Source: Marsupella aquatica (lineage: Eukaryota; Plantae; Marchantiophyta). From it: a stretch of DNA of 64,000 nucleotides. The position numbers and the translations under genes were made by a program. Numbering within the stretch: position 1 is the first letter of the stretch; each line of letters opens with the position of its first letter. Where the stretch lies: assembly GCA_973895155.1 (NCBI GenBank), contig OZ316892.1, positions 696,917-760,916 of the forward strand. The letters run 5' to 3'. Positions 15,301 through 60,716 of the stretch are shown one piece after another. The notes under the pieces are model-generated. The model did not search any database. It saw nothing but the letters and a program-made list of their open reading frames with translations, and was not told where the DNA came from.

Positions 15301-18300
15301 CCGAGTCATTTGCGTAGTCAGAATCACAACAATTTAACAAGTGATAAGCAGAAGAAGTACCTTTTGTTGATTTTCGGACGCTTGTTTTTCCGCTCCTAAC
15401 GTCAACTCAGCAATATGCGCTTTGCAGCTTCTTAACTGCAAAGACGAGGAAACGAAATGATGCTTTAGGACGTATGAACTCTTGTGAGCAATGACCTAAG
15501 AATGTTCCAAAATTGCGAGAGGAACTTGTCTGCACCAGATATATATCAAGGTAATACCTGAACGTCCTTCTCAGCACATTCCTGCTGCAAACTTTCAACG
15601 GATTTGCGGGCCTGAATCTGCTGATTCTTCATTTCGATTACAATCCTGTTCCAAACAAATACAGCTCAGAACCAAACTTCCTTCAAGCCCCACAGGGAAA
15701 TAAAATCTGGAGAGATTCAGAGAAATCATGTTAGGCGCGATAGAATAACTCAAGTACCTGTCAAGTTCAGTTTTCGAAGTCTCTGCACGTTGAATGGCCC
15801 GCACTGTTTGAGCTTCCTGACTGTCTCTCGTTACCTGCATCAATCCCATCTCGCTCTTTGAGGCCTCCAGTTCCTTGTCAAGAGACTCCCTCGCAACGCG
15901 TTGTTTTTCCGACTCTCGTTTGACAATATCGAGCTGAATTGACGGACATCCACTCGTTAGTACATCAACAACCGTAGGACTTCAGCAACGAAATAAAATA
16001 ATAGAAACATCTCGGTTACTTGTCTGTATATAGCTTCCACATACCTGGCTCTCTAGCGCATACACAGTACTCTCAAGTTCCTCTACTGATCGTTCCAAAA
16101 TCCGAGCCTCCTCTTCCTTCTCTTCCGCATGACTTTTACTCCGTTCTGCGGCCTGGCCAGCCAATTGAAGAATGTACTCACAACCGATCAACATACAAAA
16201 GACCAAAATGACTTACCATTTGGAATTTCAAATGTAGAGAAAGCAATGAGACAGCAGAATCTAACACTGAACTTACTTGACGTGCCTCTGCAGCAACTAT
16301 TTCAAGCTCATCAGCTAGAGTCTGAGCCATTTCAAGCTGTTCGTTGAGGACGACAAGATCAGTTTGATATTTGTCGCGCTCATTCTCCACAGCTTTTAGT
16401 TCGCTATTCATCGTCTGAAGCGACTGGACAATTCCTTGCTCTTTCACAACCTTGAGATCAGGAAGGTCTTTCAATGCCCTGTCGTTTTTAGATGTCAGTT
16501 CACAGACAACAGTTTGCATGTCCTCGAAGCTGCTCACCATTTCGCCTTCCAGATCGAGGAGCCGAGCTACCAGATCATCCTTCAGGAACTTCATCTCAAC
16601 ACCTAGATGATCCAAATCCCGTTGATGGTCATTCTTCAGTTCAAATAGTTCCCTATCGACAGCCAAGAGGAGATCCGCCGTTGCAACCAAGCCATTCACC
16701 TCCTCCTTACACATTATCCAGATATCTTGTTTTTGTGTATGCATGTCAGTTTCCAGTCTTGCAATCTTGGACACCAGCTTGTCCCTCTCTGGCATCCACC
16801 ATCCTTGCACAATTCCGAGACTCTCCTTTTCGGTTTTCCAGTCTAGTGCATCCTGTTTTGCATTCTCATTAGCTTTGACTAATGCATCCACAAGATCTTC
16901 AGCTTCTTTCAACGTCGCTTGACCATCCTGGAATTTCTCAAGCAAAGCACCAGCTTCGTTCCTTTTCTCGTTTGCGACAAGTTTTGCTTCAGTTAGCTCC
17001 TGAGCAAGGGCTACTTTCTCTTTCCTCCATTCAAATTCCACATCGTGCATTTTTGTTTCCCAATCGGACATAACGCCCACTACTTTCTGGAGCTCGGCCT
17101 CGCATCCTTCAATTTTGATATCTCGCTTGAAAAGCTCTTCCTCGGTAGTCTTGAACTTCAAAGAAAGGGTCTCGATTAGACTCTTATTCTCGAGCTGGAT
17201 TTGCGTCAACCTGTGGTTTTCACAATGTACTTTGTCCATCTCCAGTTCTGCCTCCTTCAGATTTGCAATTGCTATCTGCATGTCTTTCTTTGCCGAAAGG
17301 ATGGTCCTATCTTTCTCAGAGATCTTGGCTCTCAACACTTGGATTTCCTGCTTTTGCCTGCTATATAGATGAGCCTCCTCGAATTGTTTCTGATCTTCCG
17401 ATCCTGGGATGCACTCATGTAAGCATTGGCTCAGTTCTCCCCTACTTTTGGAAACACCAGACCCTTCGTTGCTGACATTTCCACTTTTTATTTGTCCGGC
17501 CGAGACCTCCAACTCCTCGAGTTTCCTCGTAAGAAGCTCTTGTTCCGATCTCCAGCATGCCTCTGCCAGAAGATACTGGTCTCTTAATTGATTCAATGCA
17601 GCAATGCTATCATCTGCTTCTGTACACTCTGTTTTAAAAGCTATCGACATTCCCCTGAGCGTATCCATTTGCTCCTGTTGCTCTGTAACCTTCGCCAGAG
17701 ATAGTTTGGCATCCTCATTCAACTTATGTACTTCCTCTTCAAGCCCTGTAAGCCTCAAACCAAGATCTTCTATATTCTCAACTGCAACTTTCAAGCTTCC
17801 TTCTGTTGCCACTAATTTCAACTCAGCAGCGGCAATCTCATCTCGAAGCTCTGTTTCACGAGCATCATTTTCATCCTTCATTCTTCTCTTGTTTACTTCC
17901 CAATTGTCCCTTCCCAGCACAACCTGAGCCTTATCTGAATCAGCGACAGCTTGCAGTTCATACGTCTGGACCTCGGCATTCTCGACTCTTCTCTGCATTT
18001 CGAGATATCTGTCCTCCACTTCTTCGAGAGCGACGGAGCTGATGTTAGCAGCTGAATCCAAAAATGCAAGATCCTTCTCCAGATTCCGCTGAGATATTTC
18101 TAGCCCTCCCAACTCCTGTTCCATTGTTATCAATCGGGCTTCTACTCTTTCCAAGGTCTGTTGACTTCTTCTAGTACTGTCAAATATAGCACTCTGTATT
18201 TCTTCCAACTCTACATTTACACAAAATGAATCGAATCGAAGACTGTCTTTCTCCTGTCTCATCTCCTCGGTTACACGCCTTGTGTCTGCCCTCTCTACCT

Positions 18301-18997
18301 CCCATCGTACTTTTGTTCCGGTCAGCTCCTCCATTTGCCTGGATAGCGAGTTCTCGTGCAGCTCCGCTTCCATTAGTTTAAATCGTAGTCCAGCAAGGTC
18401 TCCCTGAGTAGCAACGAGTTCCTGCTCTTTCTCCGTGCAGCGCATTTCAGCTTGGCTAGAAGTAAGCACCAGCCTGCATTTCTCGAGTTCCAGTTCTTCC
18501 ACTGCGACTGTCAAGGACTTAACACCCTCTAGCATCTCTGAAACTCGGAACTCTGTTTTTTTAAAACTCGAGTCCAGACGCTGCACGTCAGTTTTCAGGC
18601 TCCCCTGTGTAGACACCAACTCAGCAGATACAACTTCTTGTCGCGGTTGTGTGTCACATGCACATTTCCCCTCTTCGATTCTTGTGTTATAAGCTTCCTT
18701 GTTGCTCATCTCGAGAGCAAACTGAGTGGCTACCAAGTCAACAGCAATTTGCATATTGTTAATCTGGACCACAACAATCCCGAGTAGTCTCTTCATTTCG
18801 AGCTCCTTCTCTTCCAAAGCAAACGCGTCACCCGAAGCAGCTGCCTCCAGCAATGCCATATCATACTCCAGCTTGACCTTGGACATTTTCAACCTTGCCA
18901 GCTCTTCCTCCATTGCTGTCATTCTAGCTTCCAGTACTTGGAAGGCTTCCTGATTTGCTCTGAAACTCTCCAGTACTGAAATCTCCATTTTTTCCAT
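12337..18997 (-). CDS. Kinesin-12 (POK1/POK2-like) coiled-coil stalk and tail, multi-exon; motor domain not seen
   Basis: Large coiled-coil exon (~18997-16277), then GT-AG exons at approx. 16152-16045, 15933-15758, 15645-15558, 15435-15361, 15263-15018, 14864-14763, 14482-14408, 14303-14246, 13773-13662, 13532-13422, 13304-13137, 12953-12888, 12726-12604, 12471-12337. KIN12 tail motifs VFMLNTKLAEAESMTHDVVRDLLGVKMD and KKLSGQQNLQQRIHHHAKTKEENN. Confidence 0.82.
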
Positions 18998-19009
18998 CTC
19001 TAAATTCAA

Positions 19010-20095
19010 ATAATCTACATGTATCGCAGCTTGTGCTTTTCCTCTCTCAGCTTTAGCATTTCATGTTCCACACCCGTCCTCTCGATATCCCGCTCCACCG
19101 TAGCTACTGTGAGCTCCTCCATTCGTTCGGATACGGATTGCTCTCGCAGCTCTGGTGCACTAAAGTCTGGCTCGTACGTCAGCCAGATCACCCCGGATTG
19201 CGGTTATCTGCAACTCTTTCTCGCTGAAATTCGTGTCACCTTGACGAGCAGCCAGTACTAATGTTCCCGCCAATTTCTTCCTCCAGCATTAATACCTTAG
19301 AACCACAAAGTACCAAGCTCTCTCCCGACTGAACAAATACCAAGCTTTCTTCCTTCGACAGTCGAGACTTCGTGACAGAGCACCTCGAGTCCATCCCTCA
19401 CATTGCTCATGAAGAATTCCAGGCTCTCCGCACATGCATCTGGCGAAGGGAACTTGCTTTCATCACAACATATTTAGCGCCCCGTTGTACGCTGAATATA
19501 TAAATCTAAATTATATATGACGGATATTAGTATATTGTTGTTCGTCTTTCACTCACACCTCGTGTAAAAATCAGCTCGGCATTGTAATTTCTGAGGCTCA
19601 ATTCCACCACCCCAAGTTGTTGCTTTAGATTTCCCTGTTTCTAGAGCATGAATGGACTTCCAAACAGGCTTCTGGAATTCGTGACTTTCTTCCGGTTGAC
19701 GTTGCAGCCTTGACACCTCTGAGGGGGCAATATGTTTTGTTACCTGAATTTTGTTCTCAAGAGGAAAAACACACTATCTCCCACAAATCTCATGATCGTT
19801 GTGCTTCTAAAAGCTCCCTACACAATCCTTCATGTTCTACTCGTGTCTTCTCGAGCTTCTGTTGCAGTCTCTCGTGCTCTTCCCGGCCTTAAACGAGCTC
19901 GTCCAGTGGCTCGTGTCGATCTTGTGCTTTTTCAAACGTCTCGTCGCTCGCAGCATATCGCAAATTAGTAACTGGTGTTGGTCAGCGATGTTCGAGGACT
20001 GGCGATTTGTCATCTTCCTTATTAAGCTTCTTCAACGCAGTCGGCAATAAATCTACAGTACTTGTCTGCCAATCCGTTCAAAAGTAACTCCACAA
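19010..20095 (-). pseudogene. Decayed 5' continuation of the kinesin-12-like gene
   Basis: RMEELTVATVERDIERTGVEHEMLKLREEKHKLRY aligns with the internal repeat of the big exon but is out of frame at ~19020. Further coiled-coil-like stretches upstream contain stops. Confidence 0.6.
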
Positions 20096-39610: not shown

Positions 39611-40576
39611 TTACAACACTGGCATGACACTGGACTGTCCATTGGTGCCTTCTTCCATTTTAGCGGCTTCCTCCAACTTCAGTGCTGCAGCTTCTCTCTC
39701 TGCATCCCTCGCCCACTTGAGTCGAAGCAAGAGAATTGTAACAATGACGAAGGCCCAGTACAGGAAGTACGAAATCAGGGTACCCACGGTGGCCTCATCT
39801 CTCCAGCCCACTATGGCATTCAGAAGCTTCCAGATACCATTGCCGTCTTGGTGGCAGCAGTGGAGCTTCCACACGAAGTGCTCCGTATGGTTGTACTCCT
39901 CAAACTCGTGGACACTTGTGGAGAACAAACCGGCGGCGATCACGAACAGTAGGAGAGTTGCCGCTCCCATGAACCACTTGAATGCGACGTGGTTCCCTCC
40001 CTTGTACAGAAACACACCAATGCTACAACCACAGATAGCTCCGGTGACTGCAGCCAATGGGTAAGCAGTGCCTGATCCTTCAAGACCGACTCCTCCCAAG
40101 AAGATGACCGCCTCCACTCCCTCTCGGAGGACAGTGAGAAGTGGAATCAAGAAGAGAGCGTACTCGCTTCGTTTGGTCTGCAGCGTGCCATACCTCTCAA
40201 CGCTGTCCAGCGTGACCTTAGTGAGCTTCTTCTCCCACTTTGATTTCCATGTCTCCACTCGAATCATGGACAGCGCCATAAGAGTAATCAAAATCACCGC
40301 AATCAAGCTCAGTATGCCTTCCCATAGAGGCTCAGATTTGTCCCAAGCGTTTTTGGCGACCGTGTAGTAGAGAGACAAGAAAATGGCGGCGCAGCACAAC
40401 GTTAGAACGACCCCGAAGACGACACCTCCCCACACTTGTTTCCGTAGTTGCTTTCGAATTCGGATGTCCGGTACCACCTTGTTCAGGAGCGACAGCATCA
40501 CCGAGAGGATGATGGACGCCTCCAACGTCTCTCGGAACAGAATGAAGAAGGCCGGGACGCTGAAAATTTGGACCAT
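39611..40576 (-). CDS. FTR1: High-affinity iron permease FTR1 (fungal type), intronless, 321 aa
   Basis: Two RExxE motifs (FRETLEA, LREGVEA), multiple TM segments, N-terminal IFSVPAFFILFRE and C-terminal ATVGTLISYFLYW as in fungal Ftr1. Confidence 0.93.
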   Translation of the reverse strand: MVQIFSVPAFFILFRETLEASIILSVMLSLLNKVVPDIRIRKQLRKQVWGGVVFGVVLTLCCAAIFLSLYYTVAKNAWDKSEPLWEGILSLIAVILITLMALSMIRVETWKSKWEKKLTKVTLDSVERYGTLQTKRSEYALFLIPLLTVLREGVEAVIFLGGVGLEGSGTAYPLAAVTGAICGCSIGVFLYKGGNHVAFKWFMGAATLLLFVIAAGLFSTSVHEFEEYNHTEHFVWKLHCCHQDGNGIWKLLNAIVGWRDEATVGTLISYFLYWAFVIVTILLLRLKWARDAEREAAALKLEEAAKMEEGTNGQSSVMPVL

Positions 40577-41884
40577 CTTGACTCACTGCACTGGTCGACT
40601 CAACTTTGCAGAAACTACCGATTGCTCAAAACAGAAATTAATGGGACACTAGTTATGCCTGAAATGAGTCTTTGGCAAGTCTTCCTCCTGTGCCAAATAA
40701 AATTTTGTCAACAAGTACATGAAGGTCCCCGAGCTCTATTCTGCTATGAGTCTACCGTAAAGCACACTCAGGTAGTTAGTACGTAGAATTACTTCGTGAC
40801 ACAGGTCCACGAGGTAGCACAGATGGTACGTTGACGCCAGACAGGGTCTCAGCTGCCCAGTAGCACCGATAGAACGGTGAAGGACGAGTCGCGATTGCCC
40901 AGAAGCACCGAGCTGGTCAGGTAGCCCCGAAAGCATCGATGGGTAATCGTCTGATCGATGCAGGGGAATATATGCACTGGTCCACTGATCTTGTGTATAA
41001 AAGCTTGATTACAGTACTCAGTTTCATCCTTCAGAGGTTGCATGGGGGCGCTGACTACGGGACATACAGGACTACAGGAGCAATATCTTAAAGAACATGT
41101 CCGACCCGAGCCGGGCTGTGATGGGCACGCAGTGGGCACAATCCGCTTTTGCTGAGGTCAGCAGATTTGCTGACTTTGTGCATTCGCTTCGAAATTTTAC
41201 CTTATCGCGATGTTGTGTCATGTTCTACTCTACTGCTGTTGGGGTTTTCTCAAATTTGGCCCATCACTCATTTGCTTGACAGACTTTACATCAGATCGTC
41301 AGAGAATACGGGGACGGCCAGAGATGAATGTCAACCCCTCGCCGGGTGAAATCCAGTTTCGCTTCAAAGTAGACATCTCTTAGTTACCGTTCCACTCGTG
41401 GTCCCAGGCAACCCACTACAGTATCGCATTGAGCAGACACACGCCTGCTGTGTGCCCAACTCGTCGTGATCGTGGAGTATGTGTGTGGCCTTCTCTATTG
41501 AGGATCAGCTCAGAGAATTTGAGAGTGTTTGTGGCATCCTCGAGCGACAGCCAAGAGGATAAGATGAGGACACTGCAAAAAGTCCAAGCTATTTGCAAGT
41601 TCAGAGTAATAGAGGGTTTAAGCAACTAGTTTTACACTAACAACCGAGATCACGTTAAAAAGTTGATAAGTGGACGATTACAAACTATCAGCGACTCGTT
41701 TAAAACTTCGAAAACGTTGATTTTAAAATGTTTACACGCGGACAACTGTAGCAAATTTTGGTGTAGAATAAGGCCCTGAAAACATGGGATTATGGTTCTC
41801 GCCCCTGGTGTCAAGGCCTATACGCTGACTCAAATTTTGCAAGAGACAAAACTGTAACTCACAGTCCAAGCTGTATAAAAAGAC

Positions 41885-46160: not shown

Positions 46161-48533
46161 TCACCAGTAATCACCACAAGAACAAACGCCATCTTTGAAA
46201 TGGTGAAAGCGATTTGCATCCCTCGCTATAATCTCGCGTCCTGTCACCTTAGAGATAAACTTGGTTGCTGTGTGACAATCTGGACACACCCGAAGGTTCT
46301 TAGTTAGACGAATTGGCTGTTCCCGAGGTATGTGAATTAGTCCGTAAGCAATAGCCAACTTCTCACTGTGAGAGCAAAGAGCTAGTTCTTTATACTCCTC
46401 ATTGATATCATGTAGCACAAGCCGGGTGTCGGGAATGTAGCCTTCAGCCTTCAGTTTTTCAGTCAATTTATTAAGCTCAGTATATATCGCCTGCGCTTCT
46501 GGGTGAGATGTATCCGCTACGACAAACTCATGCATCTTGTTATCAACTTCAATCCAGCAACGCCCTGGCTCCTTCCGAACACCTCTCCTTTGCATCATAC
46601 TGCGCACCAAAGACACCTTCTCCCACTTGCCAGCCGCAGCATAGATGTTGGAGAGAAGCACATATGGAGAGGCCATACTGGGTTCCAACTTGAAAAGCTC
46701 TTGAGCGGCAAGTTCGCCCAACTCCACATTACCGTAAGTTCTACAAGCCCCAAGCAAGGCAGTCCAAGTCACCGTATTTGGTTCAATTGGCATGTCAATA
46801 ATGAAGAGCTTTGCTTCCTCAACGTGTCCTGCCCGCCCAAGAAGATCCACCATGCAGTTGTAATGCACAATGTCAGGCTCAATCCCATAATCTTGCTTCA
46901 TTGCTAAAAAGAGTTTACCGCCGTCATCAACAAGGCCACCATGGCAACAGGCCGACAACACTGCCACGAATGAAGTCCCGTTGGGCTTCACACCGTCTGC
47001 GTTCATTTTCCTGAAGAGCTCCAGGGCTTCATTCCCACATCCATGTTGTGCAAGTCCACCGATCATTGCATTCCACGTAACTACATCGTGTTTTTCCATT
47101 CTCTCAAAAACCCGTCGGGCATCATCTATACTGCCACTCTTTGCATACATGTGAACCAGTGCATTCCCCACACCTAAATCTGACTCCAGTCCCACCTTGC
47201 TAGCATGGCCATGAACATCCTTCACCCACTCCAAAGCCCCGGCACTTGCAGCTGCATTCAGGATGCTCAGACAAGTGATTGCACCCGGTCTGAAGCCTTC
47301 CCGTTTCATTTGGCAAAACAGCCGATATGCTTCATGCCCACAACCATGTTGTGCAAGCCCACCGATCATTGTATTCCATGTGACTACATCGCGTTTCTCC
47401 ATTCTGTCAAAAACTCGTCGGGCGTCATCGATACTGCCACTCTCTGCATACATGTGAACCAGTGCAGTGCCCACACGCAAATGCGACTCCAGTCCCGCTT
47501 TGCTAGCATGGCCATGAATCTCTTTCACCCACTTCAAAGCCCCCGCACTTGCAGATGCATTCAGGATGCTCACATAAGTGATTTCATTTGGTTCGAAGCC
47601 TTGGCGTCTCATTTCAAGAAACATTCGATATGCTTCCAAACCACGACCACTTCCTGCATATGCTCCAATCATTATGTTCCATGTGATGACATCTCGATGA
47701 GTCAAATCTTCAAAAACTCGAGTTGCCTCTGTGAGGCACCCACACTTTGCGTACATCTTAAGGAGGGCAGTCCCTACACGGACATCTGCTTCGAAACCGG
47801 CTTGTCGAATACACACATGCAGTTCTTTTCCCCAAGTCAGAGCTGATGGGCTGGCACATGCCTTCAAAATGCACAAATATGTGACCTCATTAGGTCGCAT
47901 ACCTTCTTGGCGCATTAATTTGAAAACTTCCAAGGCGGATTCAGGATGACGACTCTTAACATAGCCAGTAATCATCGAGTTCCAATGAATAACACTCTTC
48001 TCCTCAAGTTCATCAAAAACTCGGCGTGCATCCAGCAATCCCCCGCATTTGATGTACACATTCAGGAGGGTACTTGCCACATATGGATTCTTATCCATTC
48101 TACTCTCGATCATGCAGTCATGAACTTGCTTGGTCGCAAAAAGGTCGTTCTGTTGCAAGCACATTTGCAGAACTTTAATATACATGGACGAGTTTGAAGT
48201 ACTGCCTCCTTGTAGAAGATTCTGCAAAACAGCAATTGCTTCACTAGTGGTAGCAGCGCTATGGATGTGAGTACGGGGATTCGCTTGTGCAGTGTCTCGA
48301 GACCAATCTCTCCTGCCATAACTGGCACGAGGCTGCAATCTGCTGTGAGCAGTCAAACTGAGCCCTTCCTTCATCCATGCTGAAGTCGACGGCCCATCCA
48401 TCCAAAGAGCTCTCTTTGGCACCTCCTCGGTCTTCAGGTCTTGTCCTACTGAATTCTCGGTCTGCCTGATGACCGAGCCCACAGGTCTACTTGCAGGTAC
48501 AGGGTAACTTGTTAGAGAACGGATCGGCACCAT
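46161..48533 (-). CDS. PLS-class pentatricopeptide repeat protein with E and DYW domains (organellar C-to-U RNA editing factor), intronless
   Basis: P-L-S repeats (GTALVHMYAxSGSIDDARRVFxRMEKxDVVTWNxMIGG), PG box KEPGRCWIEV, deaminase motif HSEKLA...CPDCH, terminal CSCGDYW. First ATG at 48533; the true start may lie further upstream. Confidence 0.95.
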   Translation of the reverse strand: MVPIRSLTSYPVPASRPVGSVIRQTENSVGQDLKTEEVPKRALWMDGPSTSAWMKEGLSLTAHSRLQPRASYGRRDWSRDTAQANPRTHIHSAATTSEAIAVLQNLLQGGSTSNSSMYIKVLQMCLQQNDLFATKQVHDCMIESRMDKNPYVASTLLNVYIKCGGLLDARRVFDELEEKSVIHWNSMITGYVKSRHPESALEVFKLMRQEGMRPNEVTYLCILKACASPSALTWGKELHVCIRQAGFEADVRVGTALLKMYAKCGCLTEATRVFEDLTHRDVITWNIMIGAYAGSGRGLEAYRMFLEMRRQGFEPNEITYVSILNASASAGALKWVKEIHGHASKAGLESHLRVGTALVHMYAESGSIDDARRVFDRMEKRDVVTWNTMIGGLAQHGCGHEAYRLFCQMKREGFRPGAITCLSILNAAASAGALEWVKDVHGHASKVGLESDLGVGNALVHMYAKSGSIDDARRVFERMEKHDVVTWNAMIGGLAQHGCGNEALELFRKMNADGVKPNGTSFVAVLSACCHGGLVDDGGKLFLAMKQDYGIEPDIVHYNCMVDLLGRAGHVEEAKLFIIDMPIEPNTVTWTALLGACRTYGNVELGELAAQELFKLEPSMASPYVLLSNIYAAAGKWEKVSLVRSMMQRRGVRKEPGRCWIEVDNKMHEFVVADTSHPEAQAIYTELNKLTEKLKAEGYIPDTRLVLHDINEEYKELALCSHSEKLAIAYGLIHIPREQPIRLTKNLRVCPDCHTATKFISKVTGREIIARDANRFHHFKDGVCSCGDYW

Positions 48534-50144
48534 GTTGAAAGATCCTGGCCTGGTCAACAACTATATAGGCCGGCTCTACTCTTGTTCGGCTTTTCGGTTC
48601 AAATCTTGGACCAGGCCGCCCATTATTTGGACTTGGGGCTCGCTGATCAGATGTACTCTGTTCCGCTCGCCGTGACCTTGTCTGCTCTGACAGTACTGGC
48701 TTAAAGCTTGCTCTCGAACCTGGCTGGGCAACTTCAAGCGATGATGATGAAGTACTTTTGTCGAAATTCCCAGCAGCATTCAAGTCCCGGGTCCTGCTCT
48801 GATGTTGAGGCTTAAGTGCAGTCGGGTTTTGGGTGACTCGGGAGGGATAATTCCGTGGGGGTCGATGATATTTGCCAAACGTTCAATCCAAAGACTATAC
48901 ATACACAGTTCTCTTCGGTGCCCTGGCAGGATTGAAGTTGAATGCGTCCTTATAGTTTTCTTTCGGCCATGGCCTCTGCAGTGTCAGCGGTCTGGCATTT
49001 CCGTGAAAAGAATGTGGGAGCTGCGTCACACAAAAACTTACTCTGTGTAATTGATTATCCAGGAGAAGTACCCGCTGCCGCTGATTCCTGAAAAATGATA
49101 AATTGCAGTATACAAGTCAGCGGATAGAAAATGGTGGGCAATGCTCTACAGTCGAAGGAAGAGACCCAGAAATGTGTGATGGGAGAAGCGAAGTGGCGAG
49201 AAGAGGGGAGGGAAGGGAAGGGAAGGGAAGGGAAGCAATCCTCCATTAAATTCACCGTAACGAGTACTGCCAAGTGAATGAATAACAATGAGTCAATGAT
49301 TCAAACAGAGGCCAATTCATAGGTTTCACTATATGGGTAGAACTTCAAGTATGAGAACAGACAATTGAGATATGAAATCCAAGCGAAGATCACAACAAAG
49401 AGATGTAATGTGTTTCGAACAACGAACCTGCAGAGCCGTGAGAAAATTATGGCTATGCTGCATCGAGACCTCATCGTATGTGCCATAAGACTGTCCCGGC
49501 AGTTCCAGTTCTGGCTCACGGCCTCCGTTCTGCTCCCCATCATGCGGCGGCATCCTCCAGTCCTACTGAATCATGCGTTGCAACCTCTGGAGCTGCTGAA
49601 GACTCCAGCCTCCTTCGCTCAACTATCCCTCTGCCCAGATCCTTCCTCTGCGTCGTCTCCTGTTCAAATGTCAAAACACCTTGCCTGCCGGGGCAGCTCT
49701 GTCTCCCTCACTCCCTTCCCACTGCGTTTTGCCTTCGTTACTCGTTCAATCTCCCGTATCAGTCGATCAAGCCTAGGTTGATAGTGCTGGAGCTAATGGG
49801 TGCCGTTCTGTCCATGAGAAAGAAGGTTGGTGCTGCAGTTCAGGGTCTAGAGATAGCATCAATATTTGGTGAACTCTATGGGAAGCAAGCAGGTACTAGC
49901 TCAATGGATTTTTGGTCGTTGCAGAGACTGGCATCGGTGGTTGCGGCAACAGTAGTAGTCAGCACATTTAGAGGGCAGGCAGAAGAGTAGTCAATGACAA
50001 GAGAGCGGTGAGATAAGCAGTTCCGCTCCAGCCTTTTCTTCCATCCCTTTCACCAAGAGAGAGTGAGATATCATGGTGAAGTGACCTTCATAGCATATCA
50101 AATTAGTGATAGAGTTTAGATTGCTAAAACTATAGATTTTGGTC

Positions 50145-50227
50145 GGCATCCGAGATAGAGGCATCCAAGATAGAGGCATCCAAGATAAATGTTGGTCCAA
50201 GATAGATCCATCCCAGATAGAGGCATC
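50145..50227. repeat. Short repeat array (ggcatcc(a/g)agataga) interrupted by the retroelement insertion
   Basis: About 5 copies of a ~15-bp motif; the last unit is completed after the element (catctgagatag at 59116-59127). Confidence 0.75.
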
Positions 50228-50557
50228 TGTCACACCATTCTAGATAATGTTAGAGTATATCGTACTATCTAGATCCGTATGTTTGGTATGTGTGCTATAT
50301 GAGCCGATAAGGTTCCGTCATGTTTATGTGAGATAGTACTTCTCACTTGTGAGGCATTGAAAGGTCGTCTTTCAATGTTGAGCCTTAGAGAGAGAGGAGC
50401 TTGAGTGGCTATGGTGGTTGTGAGCTCCGCTTGTGTAACGTGGATTCCTTGAGTAGTGCAAGGTGCGTTGGCTTGACATACGTGTGTGATCGGATCGGTG
50501 CGGGATCGATGGGGTATTGTTGACCGGGATCGTTGTGCCGATTGTATGGAGATTACA
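50228..50557 (+). repeat. Terminal repeat A1 (TG...CA)
   Basis: 328 bp match 58651-58978 with 11 substitutions by manual count; ends GATTACA. Confidence 0.95.
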
Positions 50558-50567
50558 TTGAAAGATC
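50558..50567 (+). promoter_or_regulatory. Putative self-priming primer-binding site
   Basis: ACA|TTGAAAGA(T) across the A1 end is complementary to TCTTTCAATGT inside repeat A (50368-50378; ATCTTTCAATGT in A2). No TGG-type tRNA PBS is present. Confidence 0.55.
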
Positions 50568-51861
50568 ATGAGCTTCAAACTCTGTTGTGCGGACAGAAGC
50601 TCAGTCTGAGTTTGTCGTTGACGGTGACGGTTCATGGTAGCTCGAATCAATTAGATTTGTGTTTGACGCGGATTCATGTTTCTTGAATCGTTGGTTCTAT
50701 TGTTTGAGTACTTTGTTGCTATTCGATCTGGTTCTGGCCAAGCTTGAACGTTGTTGGATCTGGATTTGGTCTAGATCTGGTCTAGATCTGGATCTGAATC
50801 TGGATTTAGTCGGAGTCCAGATCTGGATCTGGAAAGAGATGGCCGAAGGTTGCTGCTTGTATCGCACTGTTGTTTTGTGGACAGATCTGTTGGAATTTTG
50901 AGTGCTCGCAGCGTTTTATTGTCAAGGGACGCTCGCGAAATGTCCCAGAACCGTGCGCGACAGGTTTGCAGAGGTCGAGAGCCATCGACGTTGCCATTTT
51001 TGTGAAGGAAACTGTTGCTTTCGAGTGGCAAATGTTGCCATTTTTGAGCCCGACAACTTCTGTTTTGTATACACACACAATTGTGTTTTGTATACACACA
51101 CAATTGTGCGCGCATAAGGCGACGCGTGAGGTCACCCGTCCCGAAAGTGCTCCCAACCGCTAACACAAAGTCACCCATCGCAAGCGCAAGCAGGCGCGAG
51201 GTCGAGGTCACCCATCCCGGGGCTATTCCGGGTTGTGAGCGCGAGGGGAGGCACGTGGTCAAGGTCAAGTGTGAGGAGGTCACCCATCCCGGGGCTATTC
51301 CCAGCCGCAAGCACTTAACTGGCAAGTTCTCATCCCACCTTGTGTACACACAAGTTTTCACAACTTGTTATTTAGATTTCAAGCGCCAGGGGGCTTTATA
51401 CACTTTCCGGTTTGCTTAGAGCCTTGTTTCGGGCCAAATTAGAGGCTCTTTAGAGGTTTTTGATAGTTCTGAGTTCATCTAAATATACAGATTGAACCAA
51501 TTGTGCATGGTTTCTCATCTATAACATTGGGACATCATGAAGCCTATTATGAAGGCCTTTCATTGAACATTATGAATATTTGTTTGATCAATGTGTGATC
51601 ACTCTTGGTGTGGAGAGTTAGTGTTTGACTATTCTTGTTGATTGGATCCTCTCCACACTTGTTTCCTGTTTATGCGCCATGTTGGTTCGGTGTGGGCGCT
51701 TGATTCCATAGGAGTGATCCGGGTTTGCAACTGAACATTCTAGTGTACTGTGTATTTCTCTCCTGGTGATGTTGGAGTGATGCCCAACACACCATGGTGA
51801 ATGCTTGTGGTGCTGACAGGGATAGATTGCCCTTAGGGTTAGCACATAGATTAGGTTAGGG

Positions 51862-54426
51862 TTGGTCACCACGGATTCTTCTGGTGCTGCTGGATTACCC
51901 AATGGACGACGGACCGGTTTCACTCGGAGTGGGGCACAGTTTCGGCCAGCGGCATTGGTAGCAGTCAGCAGTGCAGCTTCAGACAGTGATTCTGATGAGG
52001 ACTCAGTGACCAGTTCTCCTCATCATCAGGTGGTTGCACCTTTGTTGTGGGATATGGACGAGATGTACGGGGCTACAAAGGGCCCACGATGATACTCTGG
52101 TGCAGTTGGCACGATTGATCTGAATGACTTCATCCAGGAGTTTGATACGTGGTGCGATATGCAGACATTGCGTAACGCCACATTCTTTACCCCTTTCATG
52201 GCATGGAAGGGATTATTTTAGCATTTGGAGGGGCCACCCATGGATGACTACCATGAGTTTCGGAAGGCTCATTTGGTTGAGATTGAGGCATGGAGGCAGC
52301 ATTGGTCGCCTAATTACGTGTCCATCACCTATGGCACTAGTGCGGCTGCCCAACCCATTGCCACAGCTGTTGCCTCTTCTAGCAGCACTAGCCAGAGTGG
52401 CACACCATCCACCAGCAGCACTCCAGCAGCATCCACCGCTACTCCTGCCGGTGTGATTGTGACAGGAACTGGAGTTGCACCAGCATTTAACCCTGTGGTG
52501 GAATTCTTTGAGGTACTGAAGCAGAACTATCAGGGTGTAAGAACTGATAAGTTGAAGGGTCTTGAGGAATTTCAGCGCAAGACTGGAGAGAGTCTACGTG
52601 AGGCATACACTCGTATGCGTAGATTGATCACTGTCACCAAGGGAGTGACAGAGACTCAAGTAGTCCAGTTTTGGTATGCAATTCTGGACAGAGAATTGCG
52701 ACGTAGAGTGAGAGATGTCACTCTGCTTAGGGATGCAGATCCCACATTAGCAGTTGTTTTTACACTTTCTGAGCGCATTGAGCTCAATATGGTGAATGAG
52801 AAGGTGGTGACTTCCGGATTTTCCAAGGAAGCACCAAAGGCTGCATCCACATCCACACCACAGCCTACTGCACGGAAGAGCCAGAGGGAGAAGCCTACTG
52901 CACGAGAGTCTACCAGCCAGAGACCTGTGCCCTCTTATGCTGGACAGCAGTCAGGATGTTGGACCTGTGGTGGGGATCATGCATAGAGATATTGCCCAGA
53001 TCATAGAGGATCAGGGGGAGCATCAGCGTCTGATTAGCGACAGTGTGATCACTGTGGAGCTCTTGGACACACCAAGGATAGGTGTTTCTCACTCCATCCT
53101 GAGTTACGAAGAGGAGGATCCCGTACACATGATCAGGGAAGAGGAGGAGGAGGTAGAGGCGGTGGATGTGGTCGTGGCATGCCACATGCAGGGAGACAGG
53201 GAGGTGACACTGCCCCTGCTGTAACCATAGATCCAAAGGATGCTAAGATTGCGCAATTGGAGCAACAGCTAGCTGCCATGGCTAGTTCCCAGGTGAGACC
53301 TACTTCTGGTGATGGGGCATCAACATCCTATGGACCTTCCACATCCCATGGTCCTTCCACATCTTATGGAGCTGATGGAGACCTTGCCACCATGGGATTC
53401 ATGTATGGCACTGCACATATTGATGCATCAGCAGCTTTGACACGTGGGGCAGCCAAAGCTCTTGAGCCCCGAGGAGCAGTAGTGGAGTTAGATCCACAAA
53501 GGGGGGGTGCACGTTGGCAGACAAAGCTTCCTCAGTCTTTAACATTGTCAGAGACAGTTCAGACTGCCTCTATGAACCCGGTTCGGACAAACCCTGATGT
53601 GGGTAAGTTGGCAGAATCAGGCAGTGATGCAGCAAGGATGACAGGTACCTTGCTGGGGGCGGCTACTGCCATGGTACGTGCCCCATTATTTTTAGCGACA
53701 GACATGCTAAACTTGGGAGTTGGTCCTGCAGAAGTGTTCAGATTGGCAGCTACACTCTGTGAGGACACTCCAATGGTTGCTTCCCATGCAAAAGCAACTT
53801 GTAGTGTTGATGCAGTGAAGACCATGCCACCTACTGCTACTAGTGAGACATGGCATGCAGCAGCAGCGAGGTTGGTGGATTTACCAGCACGCCCTGCATT
53901 TGAGAGGACTAGGTTTAAACCTAGTGTTGTATCATTGGATAATCGGAGTGGTATCTTCCGATTAGTTGGGCCTTCTGGAGCAGTATACCAGCCAGAGAGG
54001 GTGTTACTAGATACTGGTGCTCAGCCCTTGATGTTGGGAAAGTCTGCCATACGTGGATTGGGATTGCATCCAGAGGATTTGGAGGATTGTCCCTTTCTCA
54101 TTCAGACTTCATTGGGGGGACCTACACCTACACAGCACATTACCAAGAGACCTCTTGATTTGAGGATTCAGGAAGGTCATACCACAGATAGCTCACAGAT
54201 ACAGGCGCAAGCTATTCTGACTAAGGCAGAGTCACATGATGTGTTGGTGGGATGTACAGTGCTCTACCCCATGGGATTTATTCTTGATTTTTGGGAGGAA
54301 TCAGTGTTATATAGACCTGATTGGCAGTCAGAAGATGCTCGATTGAGAAAATTGCCAGTGAGATTTAGTGGACCTGTGGGAGGCCTAAATCCACACCATT
54401 GTCTTTGGCAGCATTCAGTGGTCTAA
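51862..54426 (+). pseudogene. Gag (two zinc knuckles) plus aspartic protease, one frame interrupted by stops
   Basis: Capsid-like FQRKTGESLREAYTRMRRL; CWTCGGDHA*RYC (~52957) and CDHCGALGHTKDRC (53044); protease VLLDTGAQ (~54001). Stops at 52090, 52219, 52984, 53035. Confidence 0.88.
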
Positions 54427-54699
54427 TTGTTGGACCTGATGATTTGATTGAGGGTAATGCACATGCAACAGATGTTCCACCATTGGAGGAGTCTCATAAG
54501 GAGCACATCATGCGAGGATTACCTGTTGGCAGTGTTGTGCCACCAGTGTGGGGCACTGCACAGGCCTTGCCACAGATAGCAGCACGATTGGTACATGATG
54601 CATGGCGTCATGCTTTTACACCACAGTCAGGAGCAAAGCAGCCTCTTGCAGATGGACCTATGACTCTTTCACCATTGGATACCACTCCTATTGCTTGGC

Positions 54700-55680
54700 A
54701 GTATCCACCGGAGGGTATTTGTTTGTTGGATCTTTTTGGTGGGATTAGCATTGGATTGGCTGTTGTTCTTCAGGTAGGAATTCCTATGCATCGTTATTTG
54801 TATGTGGAGTCAGATGAGACAGCACGAAGGGTCTCATTGCGACATGTGGCTATGTTGGTGGATAGATATCCACAATTGCTGCCAGTGGATGCTGTTCGTG
54901 GTTATCAGCATGCACTACCTACTGATATTTCATTGCTAGGGGCAAATCATCTGCATCGTGTTGGCCCCATTGATTTGGTGATTGCTGGTTGGCCATGTCA
55001 GGGCCAATCTAGAGCTGGCATTGGGCATGGACTTCATGATCCACGCTCTGCATTGTTTTGGAAGATGTTACGGGTGCTGCGTCATCTCCAGCTACATCAG
55101 ACAGTCTCCAGCATACATTTTGGAGAATGTGCCATTGTTAGGTGATGATCGTAGTCGGATTGTTGCCAGTGTTCACCAGGTGAGGTCTTGGATTGGACCT
55201 GCTGTGTTATTGGATGCTGCACGTGTGGGTTCTTGTGCACATCGTCCACGCTTGTGGTGGACTAATTTGATCCCATGTGAGGTGCTGAAGCGAGCATTTG
55301 ACAGCATTCCACGCTCACCAGTCTTAGTGGTGGATGATATTTTGGATCCAGGGCGTCGTGCACAGGGTGTGACCCAACCTGATAGACCTCCATTGGCAAT
55401 GGTCAATGCAATTGGGTGCCCACGTTGTGCATTACCCACTCTTGTAAGCCACTCTGCTTCATATGCATTCAGAGCAGGTGGCCCTGGACTTGTGTGGGAC
55501 ACAGCTCTCCAGCAGTTAGTGCAACCTACTGCTGATGAGAGAGAGCGTGCTATGGGATTTTTGACTGGCACCACTGCAGTTGCCTCTGTGTCAGAGGGTT
55601 TGCGGCGCCAGGTTCTTGGTCAAGCAATGGACCTGAATTGTTTGACTTGGATTATCAGCTTGGGAGTAGCTGAACAGTTG
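54700..55680 (+). pseudogene. C5 cytosine DNA methyltransferase domain (DNMT3-like) within Pol
   Basis: Motif I LDLFGGIS (54726), II YLYVESD, IV DLVIAGWPCQ (54993), VI ILENV (55123), VIII AHRPRLWWTNL (55243), IX ERERAMGF (55537), X RRQVLGQAMD (55618). One frameshift at ~55100. Confidence 0.93.
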
Positions 55681-55896
55681 CGGATGCGCTCTGCTGGAAT
55701 TACTGATTGTCCCTTGGTGAGCTTGCGGTCCACTGAGACAGTACTGACCACAGCTGGGGACGAGCAAACAGTCCATGGACCTATGGCAGGATTGGCCAAG
55801 GCTAGACAGATTGTTGAGCAGGAAGGGACTGCTCAATCTACTGCTAAATAGCAATCATCGGCTATCTCTTCTACCCTACAAAGAGATATTAGGGAT

Positions 55897-56262
55897 TTGG
55901 TGGAGAGTTGGGAACCACAGCTTGGCCCTAAGTTGACAGGGGAGGGGAGACGTCGCATGCATCGATTCTTGAAGAGTTACTGGAATTGTTTTGCATTTAG
56001 CATGAAAGATTTGGGGACATTAAAGGGTCCTGGTATTCAGATTGAATTGGCTAGTGATGCGCCAATCTTTCGTAGGCCGTACCGTTATAGTGACATGGAG
56101 AGAGCTCTGATTCAAAGCAAAACTCAAGATTTGTTGGAGGCTGGATTAGTGGAGATTTCATATGGGGAGTATGCATCTGCCACAGTGATGCCAGCCAAGA
56201 AGGATGTGCATGGCAATTACACAGATAGGCGCATGTGTGGTGATTACAGACCCATTAATCGC
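55897..56262 (+). pseudogene. Reverse transcriptase N-terminal fragment (core deleted)
   Basis: PIFRRPYRYS...DLLEAGLVEIS...YASATVMPAKKD...RRMCGDYRPINR joins directly to the RT/RNase H connection; no YxDD. Confidence 0.88.
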
Positions 56263-56710
56263 CTTTCAGGAGTTGAAGCAAAGATTGGCATCATCCCCTA
56301 TTTTGAGAAGACCCATTTCAGGCAGACCATTTCAGCTACACACTGATTGGAGTGGAGTAGGACTTGGAGCAGTGCTGACTCAGAAGGATGATGAGGGGAA
56401 TGAGTTTGTTGTGGCTTATGCCAGTAGATCAAACAATTCAGCAGAGGCTAAGTATAGCTCTTATGAGGGAGAGTGTTTGGCAGCAGTGTGGGCTATTGCA
56501 CACTTTCGTTGCTACTTGTTTGGTAACCCCTTCACCTTGATCACTGATCATCAGCCTCTTAAGTGGTTAATGGAGTCTGACAAGCTTACAGGGAAGCTTG
56601 CACGATGGGCATTGTTGTTACAGGAGTATGATTTCCAGGTGGTGCATAGGCCTGGAAAAGTGAACTTGGATGCAGATGGATTAAGCTGCAATCCATGTAC
56701 CAGTCAGTAG
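56261..56710 (+). pseudogene. RT connection plus Ty3/Gypsy RNase H
   Basis: AFQELKQRLASSPILRRP, FQLHTDWSGVGLGAVLTQ, VAYASRS, YSSYEGECLAAVWAI, FTLITDHQPL, KLARWALLLQEYDF, NLDADGLS. Confidence 0.92.
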
Positions 56711-56752
56711 GATGAGACTTGAGCCAGATGGCATGATGAGTCAGATAAGGAG

Positions 56753-58140
56753 ATGGTGCCAGGATGGCATGCATCTGCCTTTCTTTGTTGGGTGCCAGCA
56801 TACAGTGGATCTGTGGACTCTACCTCATTGGATGGAGTGGATGATGAGTCTTCAGATGTGGATGTTGGTGAGGTAACTTTTGGACAACAAGATATTCACA
56901 ATGATGTGAGAGTGTTGGAATATCTGCGTAGTGGTTCTATTGTTGGCAGTGTTGATGCCAAAGAACGTGACAGGGTTCTACAAAGAGCCAAGAGGTTTCG
57001 ATGGGAGAGAAACCATCTTTTGAGAGTACTGCATAATGGTAGGGTGTTGGTGGTACCAAAACCATCACAACGAGTACATTTGGTGCGACATGCACACGAG
57101 GAGTTGGGTCACTTTGGTGTGAAGCGCACTTATAGCTTGTTGCAGACACAATATTGGTGGCGTGGTATGCACACTCATGTCCAGCAGTTGATAGCTAAGT
57201 GTGTGGTATGCGATAGAGTGAGAACATCATTTAATGCTCTCACTCCCCAATTGCACCCATTACCGATCATGGGTTTGGGATATCATTGGAGTTTGGATTT
57301 TGCTGGTCCATTACCTCTTATCCAACGCCATAATCGGTATGTTTTGGTCATGGCGGAGCACTTCTCCAAGTGAATTGAGCTAGTGGCGTTGCCAGATAAA
57401 GCCAGTGGAGGAGTTGCTGCTACATTTTTGGATCGTGTACTCAGTCATTTTGGAGCACCAGCTGAGGTGTTGACTGATCAGGGAACTGAGTTTCGTGGAG
57501 AGTTTGAGAGTTTGTGTGAACAAGCTTTGATTGATCATCGTACTACCTCTCGTGATCATCCTGAGGCAGATGGATTAGCTGAGAGAGTTGTGCAAACTGT
57601 GAAGAGAGGATTGCGTAAGTATGGCTTGCAGGTTGGTCATCTGGGAGATTGGGATCTCCAGCTACCTTGGTTAGCTATGGGCTACCGTTTCAGTCGGCAA
57701 GCATCACTTGCATCCTTCTCACCTTACTTTTTGCTCTATGGTAGAGAGCCAGATTTGCCAGCAGCTATTCGTCGTGATGCTGCACCAGTTGTGAACTTGG
57801 ATGATCCTGATGTTTGGGTCAAGGTGTGTTCAGAGAGAGCACGGGTATTTCAGAGAGTAATGCCCATGGCTTTTGACAACCTTGCCATTGCCCAACATCG
57901 TGATACTTTGAGGTATGCCACTATTCGTGGAGGAGGTTACCGTGCAAGCATTTGACGATTTCATCCTGGTGATTATGTTTATTTGCAGTAGACAGCACCC
58001 ACCACACTTGATGTGACCGCAGGCCGGACAATCTTACGTGTGCGTGAAGTGTTGCCTTCTGGTGTCCTGATGTTGGAGGGACGTGATGGTATGGTTTGGA
58101 AGGATCATGTGCGCAACTGTGCACCATGTCACCTTCCCAA
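56753..58140 (+). pseudogene. DDE integrase with H2C2 zinc finger
   Basis: HEELGHFG...CVVC, WSLDFAGPL, LTDQGTEF, GLAERVVQTVK, SPYFLLYGREP. Stops at 57371, 57953 and ~57989. Confidence 0.92.
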
Positions 58141-58196
58141 CATATATTGATGGTACAGTAGATCCAAGCTTGGCACATGTTCGTGCTGGCTTGAAA

Positions 58197-58337
58197 TGTA
58201 TGTTGTGTGGATCTGCTCAGGGAGCAGCTACTATGTTGATTTGTGATAAGTGTTCTAGAGGATGGCACATGTCATGTTTGACACCACCATTACAGGTGAT
58301 TCCTAGTGGATCATGGTTGTGTCCTCAATGTCGGTGA
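58197..58337 (+). other. PHD finger at the C-terminus of integrase
   Basis: C4HC3 pattern CMLC-x10-ICDKC-x4-HMSCLTPPLQVIPSGSWLCPQC*; joined to the IN frame via a frameshift at ~58140. Confidence 0.92.
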
Positions 58338-58501
58338 AGCCGACTAGTTATCATTTGTGTTCTCTTGGCAGATATGGATTGCAGGTAGGTGATCGATGGG
58401 GCTCACTTGCACCCGGCCTCTTGATCTTCACACCTAAAAAGGTGTATATCAACCTTGTAGAACTCATGGCTAGCTAGAGTTAGGGGACTTTACTCCCAGC
58501 T

Positions 58502-58511
58502 AGGGGGACGA
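58502..58511 (+). promoter_or_regulatory. Polypurine tract
   Basis: AGGGGGACGA immediately before the TG that starts repeat B1. Confidence 0.7.
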
Positions 58512-58512
58512 T

Positions 58513-58648
58513 TGTGGGTTTTGGACATGTGTGGACATGAGTTCCACTTGTATTCCATTCTCTTGTGTTTGTGATGTGGCAGTGTGACTATGTGTGGATG
58601 TATGTGACAAGCGATGTATGTTGTGTAGCGATGTGTATGCGCACGACA
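58513..58648 (+). repeat. Terminal repeat B1 (TG...CA)
   Basis: 136 bp, one mismatch to 58980-59115. Confidence 0.95.
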
Positions 58649-58650
58649 GC

Positions 58651-58978
58651 TGTCACACCATTCTAGGTAGTGTTAGAGTGTATCGTACTATCTAGATCCG
58701 TATGTTTGGTACGTGTGCTATATGAGCCGATAAGGTTCCGTCAAGTTTGTGTGAGAGGGTACTTCTCACTTGTGAGGCATTGAAAGGTCATCTTTCAATG
58801 TTGAGCCTTGGAGAGAGAGGAGCTTGAGTGGCTATGGTGGTTGTGAGCTCCACTTGTGTAACGTGGATTCCTTGAGTAGTGCAAGGTGCGTTGGCTTGAC
58901 ATACGTGTGTGATCGGATCGGTGCGGGATCGATGGGGTATTGTTGACCGGGATCGTTGTGCCGATTGTATGGAGATTA
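58651..58978 (+). repeat. Terminal repeat A2
   Basis: Copy of 50228-50555; lacks the final CA and runs directly into B2. Confidence 0.95.
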
Positions 58979-58979
58979 T

Positions 58980-59115
58980 TGTGGGTTTTGGACATGTGTG
59001 GACATGAGTTCCACTTGTATTCCATTCTCTTGTGTTTGTGATGTGACAGTGTGACTATGTGTGGATGTATGTGACAAGCGATGTATGTTGTGTAGCGATG
59101 TGTATGCGCACGACA
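58980..59115 (+). repeat. Terminal repeat B2 (right end of element)
   Basis: Copy of B1; ends GACA, followed by CATC. Confidence 0.95.
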
Positions 59116-60716
59116 CATCTGAGATAGAAAATAGTTGAGTCAAGTAAAGCAGGGCTTTGTATGTGATGATTGATCACAATCATTTTATGAATAAATTTGA
59201 GCAATCATTTCTACTTGATACATTTTGTTATCACTAATTAGTTCTCCTCTATTTTGTAGATATAAACCATCTACATATGTACAACAATGGCAAACCAAAG
59301 GGTTTTGAATGATATTACTAATTTTGCAACCACCATTGGACAAGTCATTTCTTCTACAAGGTTTTAATATAGACATTACTAATTTTATCACTCTCCTCTT
59401 CTCTGTTTTATAAGAAAAATGCATAATTCAATTTTATTTGCTATTAAAAATGGATCATATATATATATCTAATTTGACTTTTTATTTTTTATTTATTTTT
59501 AGGCATGTTGAATGTTTCACTTATCATAAATGGAAGTGAAACTATTCGCATCAATGAACCAAGACAAGACGAATGTCTTCCGATCGCAAGAGTAAATTTC
59601 TCATATGAAATTGAAGAGCCATTGAATTTCAGGGACCAGCGCGAGTATCATTGAGAGTTGGCGAGACTGTTGACACTATGGGAAAGGCAAATAAAGCCAA
59701 ATATATGCAAGAATGACGTGCACAACAACGAGCCAAAAGATTAGATGCACAAGTAGACGGAGAAGTTACTGAGGTTATTGTGCCAAATAAAGCAACTAAA
59801 CGGGCTAAACAACAAAAGGATCGACGCTCAATTGAAAAAACAACAAGGAACATTCATGTTGTTGTAGAGGATTCAGAAATTCTTCATATCAGGTATTAAT
59901 TTTTGTTTACAAATTTTAATGTGTGTTTGCATCCAGGCTACGTTTCTATCAAGATTTATTTCACTCTTAATTATATTTTTTGATAGGGAACTACCTATTG
60001 TTGGAGATGCACAATTACCTCTTTGGATTCAAATCAGTGTTTAGCATTGGTGCCCATGTAAGTTTTCCTTTTTAAAAGATTTTGATACTGTTTTTTGCAA
60101 GCACTTCTAAAAAAGGCCTTACATTTGATCTTCATGCTCAAATACTCAAGTCATTAGGAATACTATTTTTTTCATTGAAGATTACAACTTATTGGGATAT
60201 AATTTCATTGATTACATTTTTTTACTACACAGGGACCCAATTATTGTTGACAATGTTCGAGAACCTCCACAACTTCCTTCTTCAAATCAATGTTTAACAC
60301 CGGTTGCAAATGATCCATCTCCCACGTAAGTTTCAAGATATTATCATTTTTTGGAATTTCATAATGCAACCATTTTTAAAACATGACTGTGATTGATTGA
60401 TATAATTACAGGTTACCCATGCCTCTCATTCGAAGAAGCCTTCGAGATGAACAGATGCTCGCTAGAGCTGAGGGGCAAAGAAATAGATGTGCAAGGATAA
60501 TTAATGAGCCTGAATTTGTGCCTCTTATGACGCAACATGGGTCTACCTCTAGGTATGAAGCAAATTTATTCTCTTATCATAAATCATGAGTAAATATAAT
60601 TCTACCTTGAAATGTAAATAATATTTTATGTTGTTTATTGTTCTCCACTAGGGAACCGTCTCACAATGAAGATGACATAGTGCCTCCACAAATTACGATC
60701 AACCCACCACGTTGTT

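Follow-up and report, generated by a model that had tools for sequence, protein, structure and literature searches.

A DNMT3-like methyltransferase in the Gag frame of land-plant Gypsy-type retrotransposons, ahead of a conserved readthrough-type stop

The window, by which we mean the whole 64,000-nucleotide stretch of Marsupella aquatica DNA that was analysed, holds several genes and open frames and a large retrotransposon. On the reverse strand lie part of a nucleoside diphosphate kinase gene (3070-3420; Pfam NDK, E 7e-10), a 960-codon open frame rich in E, L, K and A that has no Pfam match and is probably a coiled-coil exon (16178-19060), an intronless gene for an FTR1-type iron permease (39611-40582; Pfam E 3e-55) and an ORF of 799 aa for a PPR-E-DYW editing factor (46161-48560). 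The FTR1 protein is closest to those of Riccia and Marchantia (72-79%), with mosses and ferns at 64-70%, so that this one gene points to a land plant and probably to a liverwort; a segment at 6896-7715 is 69-77% similar to the PPR-E-DYW ORF and looks like a decayed relative of it. The retrotransposon, of Gypsy type, spans 50228–59115 (8,888 bp), starts with TGTC, ends with GACA and carries CATC on either flank. Its domains follow the order Gag, protease (PR), DNA methyltransferase (DNMT), reverse transcriptase (RT), RNase H (RH), DDE integrase (IN) and PHD finger, and no second copy was found within the 64-kb window. The features of the element are the following.

50224..50227, forward strand: target-site duplication, 5' copy CATC, 4 bp, matching 59116-59119
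50228..50555, forward strand: repeat A1, left end of the element, starting TGTCAC; 11 differences from A2 over 328 nt
51850..55851, forward strand: ORF1 (Gag-protease-DNMT), start approximate; broken here, open for ~1,250-1,450 aa in relatives
52222..53085, forward strand: Gag region with two CCHC-like zinc knuckles (~52957-52998 and ~53044-53085), recognized by sequence
53992..54147, forward strand: aspartic protease (LDTG); Pfam Asp_protease_2, E 0.0019, below the curated cut-off
54687..55690, forward strand: DNMT3-like C5 cytosine methyltransferase, motifs I-X unpermuted, split by a frame break near 55100
55849..55857, forward strand: conserved in-frame stop in a readthrough-type context, TAG CAA TCA (UAG-CARYYA)
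55852..56262, forward strand: first part of ORF2, comprising the linker and the N-terminal portion of RT, by alignment to locus L010
56324..56629, forward strand: RNase H; Pfam RT_RNaseH, E 2e-38
57062..57952, forward strand: DDE integrase (H2C2 zinc domain and rve core) with internal stops; Integrase_H2C2 E 1e-16, rve E 1e-5
58197..58331, forward strand: PHD finger, end of ORF2; Pfam PHD, E 1.5e-12
58500..58510, forward strand: polypurine-tract-like G-rich sequence abutting B1; also in L045, L054 and L073
58511..58648, forward strand: repeat B1, final bases GACA
58645..58654, no strand: palindromic B1/A2 junction GACAGCTGTC; GACA(GC or AT)TGTC in relatives
58651..58978, forward strand: repeat A2
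58978..59115, forward strand: repeat B2, right end of the element, final bases GACA; 1 difference from B1 over 138 nt
59116..59119, forward strand: target-site duplication, 3' copy CATC

The repeats have an A…B-A-B layout, with A1 at the left and B1-A2-B2 at the right, and the same layout is found in the related loci L045, L054, L060 and L073. All five elements with both ends available are flanked by a 4-bp duplication (CATC, TCTC, AAGG, ACCA and TTTC), four of them found by script and that of L054 after correcting a one-base offset. Insertion is integrase-type, as given by the TGTC…GACA ends and the 4-bp duplication. The junction palindrome, GACA-GC-TGTC or GACA-AT-TGTC, is present in the window, in 12 other loci and in L041, L105 and L107, and the G-rich tract abuts B1 in 4/5 elements with both ends. 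The element sits at the end of an array of short ~15-nt repeats (50149-50227), and the CATC duplication belongs to the repeat unit. In the 5' leader, a 26-nt GC-rich motif occurs in three copies (51128-51301) and is possibly a promoter or packaging signal. Two candidate observations were discarded: a terminal overlap of 127 nt in contig L105 was rejected as a DNA circle, because repeats would collapse likewise in assembly; and CpG depletion (0.35 in the element versus 0.64-0.76 in three neighbouring ORFs, with 0.26-0.78 in relatives) was rejected as a sign of self-methylation, because host methylation yields the same pattern.

The Marsupella aquatica copy is dead. ORF1 has four stops (52090, 52219, 52984 and 53035), and its frame is broken at two points, around 54383 and, inside the DNMT between motifs IV and VI, around 55100; ORF2 has five stops, and by alignment to L010 the RT core lacks ~640 nt near 56262. 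Both frame breaks, which the earlier note had seen together with the TAG at 55849, are real and private to this copy: at each of the two positions, contigs from other copies contain extra sequence, and P0121, a relative sharing 81% identity in the C-terminal half of the DNMT, is open across both sites. The Gag region is 52-56% identical to the Marchantia ORF1 proteins P0123, P0126 and P0128; in relatives, Pfam gives a weak Retrotrans_gag match in P0367 and zf-CCHC in P0151 and P0166. The Gypsy order PR-RT-RH-IN is present in the DNMT-bearing family.

The domain between protease and RT is a real methyltransferase domain, DNMT3-like and not of DRM type, as judged from motifs, sequence comparison and predicted fold. 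The earlier note had described such a domain, unpermuted and at this place, and the description holds: a weak Pfam match to a protease precedes it, RNase H, integrase and PHD follow it, and all the motifs that it named are found within 54726–55638. These are I LDLFGG (54726-54743), II YVESD (54801-54815), IV GPIDLVIAGWPCQ (54963-55001), VI ENVP (55123-55134), VIII AHRPRLWWTNL (55237-55269), IX ERERAMGF (55537-55560) and X LGQAMDLN (55615-55638), so that the order is I, II, IV, VI, VIII, IX, X and the DRM-type permutation, with VI-X before I-V, is absent. Pfam DNA_methylase matches the N-terminal half (E 2.1e-8, 34.4 bits, cut-off 22), and the C-terminal half alone has no Pfam match. Among solved structures, the P0121 sequence finds DNMT3A best (E 3.6e-11), followed by the permuted plant-type 4onj (E 1.2e-6, covering the first part only) and HaeIII (4.5e-5). 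An AlphaFold model of the L010 domain (pLDDT 87, pTM 0.89) is matched best by Foldseek to DNMT3A/B/C (E 9e-21, target TM 0.82), and the matches listed are all DNMT3; phage C5 methylases also weakly match the family DNMT. The element DNMT has no introns, and Pfam detects none of the companion domains of host enzymes, such as PWWP or ADD, beside it. Of 52 aligned rows, 50 retain the catalytic Cys, 51 the motif VI Glu, and 46 and 48 the motif VIII Arg residues; 18 have Glu in place of the motif IV Pro. Even between sequences of ~35-40% identity, motif I, which binds SAM, and the catalytic residues Cys, Glu, Asn and Arg are near-invariant.

Judged from assembled relatives, the TAG at 55849 is a family feature and no decay lesion. 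It is followed by CAATCA, and the proteins P0121 and P0320 terminate at the same residue. Many full-length relatives of ~1,250-1,450 aa comprise Gag, protease and DNMT without RT, among them P0126, P0360 and P0367, and Marchantia ORFs of 1,278-1,281 aa recur within one cluster. We fetched 80 loci, 59 of which have an RT N-terminal match downstream of the DNMT (the 21 without a match were dropped). Going upstream from RT, one reaches the first in-frame stop 10-25 codons ahead of the RT anchor in 47/59 loci; at those 47 stops, CARYY comes next in 41 and the full CARYYA in 7, compared with 12/767 and 2/767 at decay stops, and CARYYA makes up 0.3% of the hexamers in the element. The loci are not independent, so the 59, together with L105 and the window, were grouped into seven families at 80% nucleotide identity: a stop with CARYY in the RT frame is present in 6/7 families and the full CARYYA in 5/7. 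The intact locus L042 has 1,369 open codons, then TAG CAGTTA, then 1,047 open codons, and this is the sole stop in ~2,400 codons; in L105 and L041, 1,047 open codons come after TAG CAATCA. No Met occurs within 100 codons after the stop in L042, L105 and L050; L010 and the window have their first at codon 36 or 48. Among the 36 loci of the largest family, which groups with named Sphagnum proteins, the stop is mostly followed by CAACCC and then ATG, with the in-frame ATG three codons past the stop; this variant misses the last base of the motif and allows reinitiation. At the DNMT-RT junction of a divergent 14-locus family (the L057-L080 group, with A…B-A-B repeats), no stop with CARYY was found. 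A candidate stem-loop 3' of the stop stands out in 2/7 elements, ranking 1/32 among the segments compared in L105 and 2/33 in L042, and elsewhere ranks 22/26 (window), 16/28 (L010), 11/33 (L041), 6/17 (L001) and 5/32 (L005); two-sided changes affect 0/34 and 5/25 predicted pairs.

CARYYA after UAG is the readthrough signal of the TMV type and works in plants (PMC2754532, PMC2194720). In-frame stops are listed for the retroelements SIRE1, MuLV and Tca2, and the usual gag:pol ratio is given as ~20:1 (PMC2194720). Because the family conserves both the stop and its readthrough-type context, the DNMT ends ORF1 (Gag-PR-DNMT). This revises the earlier note in two respects: it had put the DNMT inside the Pol polyprotein, and it had thought the ancestor probably a single Gag-PR-DNMT-RT ORF, the TAG being a chance interruption, an idea at odds with a stop plus CARYY in six of the seven families. 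Given the fused forms in distant lineages, a single-ORF ancestor may lie further back.

The DNMT occurs in three arrangements. The first, Gag-PR-DNMT, stop, RT-RH-IN-PHD, is that of the window's group and of the L041/L042/L105 group. In the second, PR-DNMT-RT is fused (Closterium P0499 and P0550, as well as P0487 and P0549), and in the distant relatives P0487, P0544, P0549 and P0499 the DNMT shares one ORF with RT and RNase H. The third, RT-RH-DNMT-IN-PHD, is found in Haematococcus, Scenedesmus and many metagenome proteins, in full order in 34/138 classified matches; the DNMT lies between RNase H and integrase in P0160-P0195, P0455, L106 and L107. The PHD finger is found in both main domain orders. 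Since fused PR-DNMT-RT-RH-IN and RT-RH-DNMT-IN-PHD proteins exist, a Gag-level DNMT is dispensable in some lineages. The DNMT-RT gene models P0123, P0124, P0131, P0153 and P0159 from Marchantia and Sphagnum were not accepted as true fusions, because each lacks the ORF1 tail or at least the first 17 codons after the stop; the gene caller appears to have spliced around the stop. As minor points, the palindromic junction recurs in L107, and in P0172 the DNMT is followed by a G-patch.

Purifying selection acts on the DNMT of the family, and the domain, which the earlier note reported from one copy, is present across the family. We computed dN/dS for DNMT, Gag, RT and RNase H. Between families the DNMT values are 0.10-0.33 (0.10-0.19 in 13/16 pair values and 0.24-0.33 in the other three), ratios that are rough since dS is 1.2-3.2, near saturation; the least saturated pair, L040-L042, gives 0.12-0.14. 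Among close, decayed copies, dN/dS is 0.42-2.65. The DNMT co-diverges with RT, RNase H and integrase, as the DNMT tree (26 rows) and the RT-RNase H-integrase tree (29 rows) contain the same main groups. The DNMT trees comprised only element DNMTs and three phage outgroups. In the bootstrap tree, the window groups with P0121 and P0320 inside an 11-row group with Calypogeia, Marchantia and Sphagnum (100/99); its root is unreliable because long branches meet.

Homologous proteins are numerous, with 182 and 79 matches in two length ranges; the organism names among them are Calypogeia, Marchantia, Riccia, Sphagnum, Closterium and Haematococcus, with Scenedesmus in a later look-up, and no Klebsormidium-named protein is among the matches listed. 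A DNMT profile search gave 567 clusters at E<=1e-30. The best 150 matches were classified (138 new ids) and 20 looked up; no host DNMT3 or Klebsormidium sequence was identified among these. Five sequencing runs from three organisms contain 26-58% of the element's sampled words; no RNA run with the element was among the 16 listed, which has no bearing on its expression. In run X1, 5,831 contigs align to a 2.2-kb stretch at 85-100% identity, a figure that reflects many diverged copies and is not a copy number. A scan of viral contigs with a single protein gave no locus, and with an alignment it gave 24 loci at 24-45% identity over short stretches. DNMT retrotransposons are also filed in bacterial genome bins (L105, L106, L107, P0137 and P0199; bins of Synechococcales, Minisyncoccia, Cyanobium, Obscuribacterales and Spirochaetia), most likely through algal contamination of the bins.

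We propose the following mechanism. Pol is probably made by readthrough, judging from the conserved stop and its context, with ORF1 as the main product: ribosomes would pass UAG-CARYYA at low frequency to give RT-RNase H-integrase-PHD, and the DNMT, which belongs to ORF1, would reach nearly the Gag level. It would then be packaged in the particle and released by the protease. The substrate would be the element's own cDNA before integration, a step to which we give slightly better than even odds. The most likely benefit would be that new copies arrive already methylated and are either taken for self or immediately silenced. For the whole reading, that is, an ORF1 of Gag-PR-DNMT, a leaky UAG-CARYYA stop, a near-Gag dose of DNMT and methylation of the cDNA in the particle, our rough probability is 0.6. 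As for the ends, the purine tract before B1 suggests that the true LTR is B+A, in which case the cDNA would read B-A-body-B-A. End joining of the cDNA could give a two-LTR circle, which the DDE integrase could open at the palindrome GACA-NN-TGTC in the first LTR, yielding A-body-B-A-B and the 4-bp duplication. A wider proposal would join an ancient DNMT3-Gypsy clade reaching from green algae to bryophytes, a shift of the DNMT into the capsid frame in land plants and the circle-type integration; in the land-plant branch, a leaky stop of the plant-virus type would let many DNMT copies per particle pre-methylate the cDNA. This combination we hold tentatively and consider doubtful as a whole.

It is possible to read the stop differently, as a true terminator, with reinitiation, a spliced RNA or an internal promoter giving ORF2; here too the DNMT would be an ORF1 product. 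The 36-locus family, with its imperfect motif and in-frame ATG three codons past the stop, agrees with this, and Tca2 has a junction promoter in addition to its in-frame gag-pol stop (PMC2194720). However, L042, L105 and L050 are without Met for 100 codons, the window and L010 reach theirs at codon 36 or 48, and the two ORFs share a frame with the exact CARYYA in 5/7 families despite differing linker length and residues; we thus regard a true terminator as unlikely. An explanation of another kind leaves the DNMT abundant and moves its action to chromosomal DNA in the nucleus, be it host genes, sister copies or the site of insertion, with the PHD-bearing integrase as a possible guide. It would account for an ORF1 product that presumably exceeds the need of one cDNA, and for a PHD finger in both main domain orders. 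Yet membership in the Gag polyprotein points to the particle, and many relatives place the DNMT between RNase H and integrase, beside the enzymes that make the cDNA; we regard a nuclear role as unlikely.

Considering that the Klebsormidium domain was inactive in yeast (PMC5890265) and that Glu replaces the motif IV Pro in 18/52 rows, the domain might be kept as a nucleic-acid-binding or structural module that does not methylate. We find this improbable, as against it stand catalytic residues and a motif I that hardly vary at ~35-40% identity, and related SymbioDIRS DNMT3 domains that methylated CG in the same assay (PMC5890265). The notion that the Marsupella aquatica copy captured a host DNMT3 as a one-off event, its TAG being a decay mutation, can draw on the heavy decay of this copy and on trees that held no host DNMT3. 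It is contradicted by the 182 and 79 homologues, the 567 clusters, the congruent trees, the low dN/dS and the conserved stop. For a domain that purifying selection maintains and that diverges together with RT, RNase H and integrase, a one-off capture can hardly be entertained. Among these alternatives, we continue to prefer readthrough at the conserved stop with methylation of the cDNA in the particle.

Among published elements, KnitGypsy-Dnmt3 of Klebsormidium nitens (de Mendoza et al. 2018, PMC5890265) comes closest. The two have in common the Gypsy domain set, an unpermuted intronless DNMT3-like domain, A…B-A-B repeats and purifying selection on the DNMT, for which the paper gives Ka/Ks < 0.2. 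They differ in that the DNMT of KnitGypsy-Dnmt3, according to the paper and its review file, lies in the ORF of RT and RNase H, whereas here it is in frame with them and separated by the conserved stop; a PHD finger is found here, and 'PHD' is absent from the main text of PMC5890265; and the host there is an alga, whereas here it is a land plant. Kinship with KnitGypsy-Dnmt3 is inferred from anatomy; the earlier note had mentioned DNMT-bearing Gypsy elements of Klebsormidium, and the present land-plant element is related to them in kind. PMC5890265 regards the capture as confined to the lineage of K. nitens, and its species table has no 'Marchantia' entry; the relatives in the chlorophytes Haematococcus and Scenedesmus argue against a Klebsormidium-specific capture. 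Its authors called the lack of methylation by the Klebsormidium DNMT in yeast inconclusive, found that two Symbiodinium DIRS domains methylated CG de novo there, and proposed cDNA methylation for such elements. SymbioDIRS-Dnmt3 of Symbiodinium (PMC5890265) has a DNMT3-type domain and A…B-A-B repeats like the present element but uses a tyrosine recombinase, in contrast to the protease, DDE integrase and 4-bp duplication found here. Likewise, DIRS and Ngaro elements have split direct repeats in common with the family, which has a DDE integrase in place of their tyrosine recombinase.

With type I readthrough, as in TMV and, for the in-frame stop, SIRE1, MuLV and Tca2, the family shares an in-frame stop between ORFs and the CARYYA hexamer. 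In the retroelements listed in PMC2754532 and PMC2194720 the stop lies between gag and pol or pol and env, whereas here it lies after the protease and methyltransferase and before RT. The host DNMT3 and DRM enzymes of plants and animals resemble the element domain in catalytic motifs and predicted fold; unlike them, the element domain is intronless, lacks PWWP and ADD, is unpermuted compared with DRM and resides inside a Gag polyprotein. Compared by description, the Phygy and Selgy elements of moss and Selaginella (PMC6317226) are also non-seed-plant Gypsy elements with a mostly coding interior, but the main text of that paper mentions no methyltransferase or PHD domain for them and, as the REXdb description, names no such domain elsewhere; Phygy prefers NCGN targets, which 0/5 duplications here fit. 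Our literature comparison covered open-access papers; within it, KnitGypsy is named in a single paper, land-plant members and the stop are undescribed, and CARYYA readthrough in retrotransposons, five Marchantia gene ids and one older-style id are unmentioned.

DNMT3-bearing Gypsy elements have thus been known since 2018, and their presence in land plants extends that finding; new here are the conserved, putatively leaky stop and the Gag-level dose of DNMT that would result. Why a retrotransposon keeps a silencing enzyme was left open in 2018, when the Gypsy example came from one alga (PMC5890265). If the proposed reading is true, several Marchantia polymorpha copies with unbroken Gag-PR-DNMT frames make the question testable in a land plant that is a genetic model with methylation mutants, and the leaky stop predicts DNMT at the level of the capsid, not of the polymerase. 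The Marchantia genes Mp4g09160, Mp5g06330 and MpVg00370 resemble host DNA methyltransferases and are ORF1s of such elements, which affects counts of plant DNMTs.
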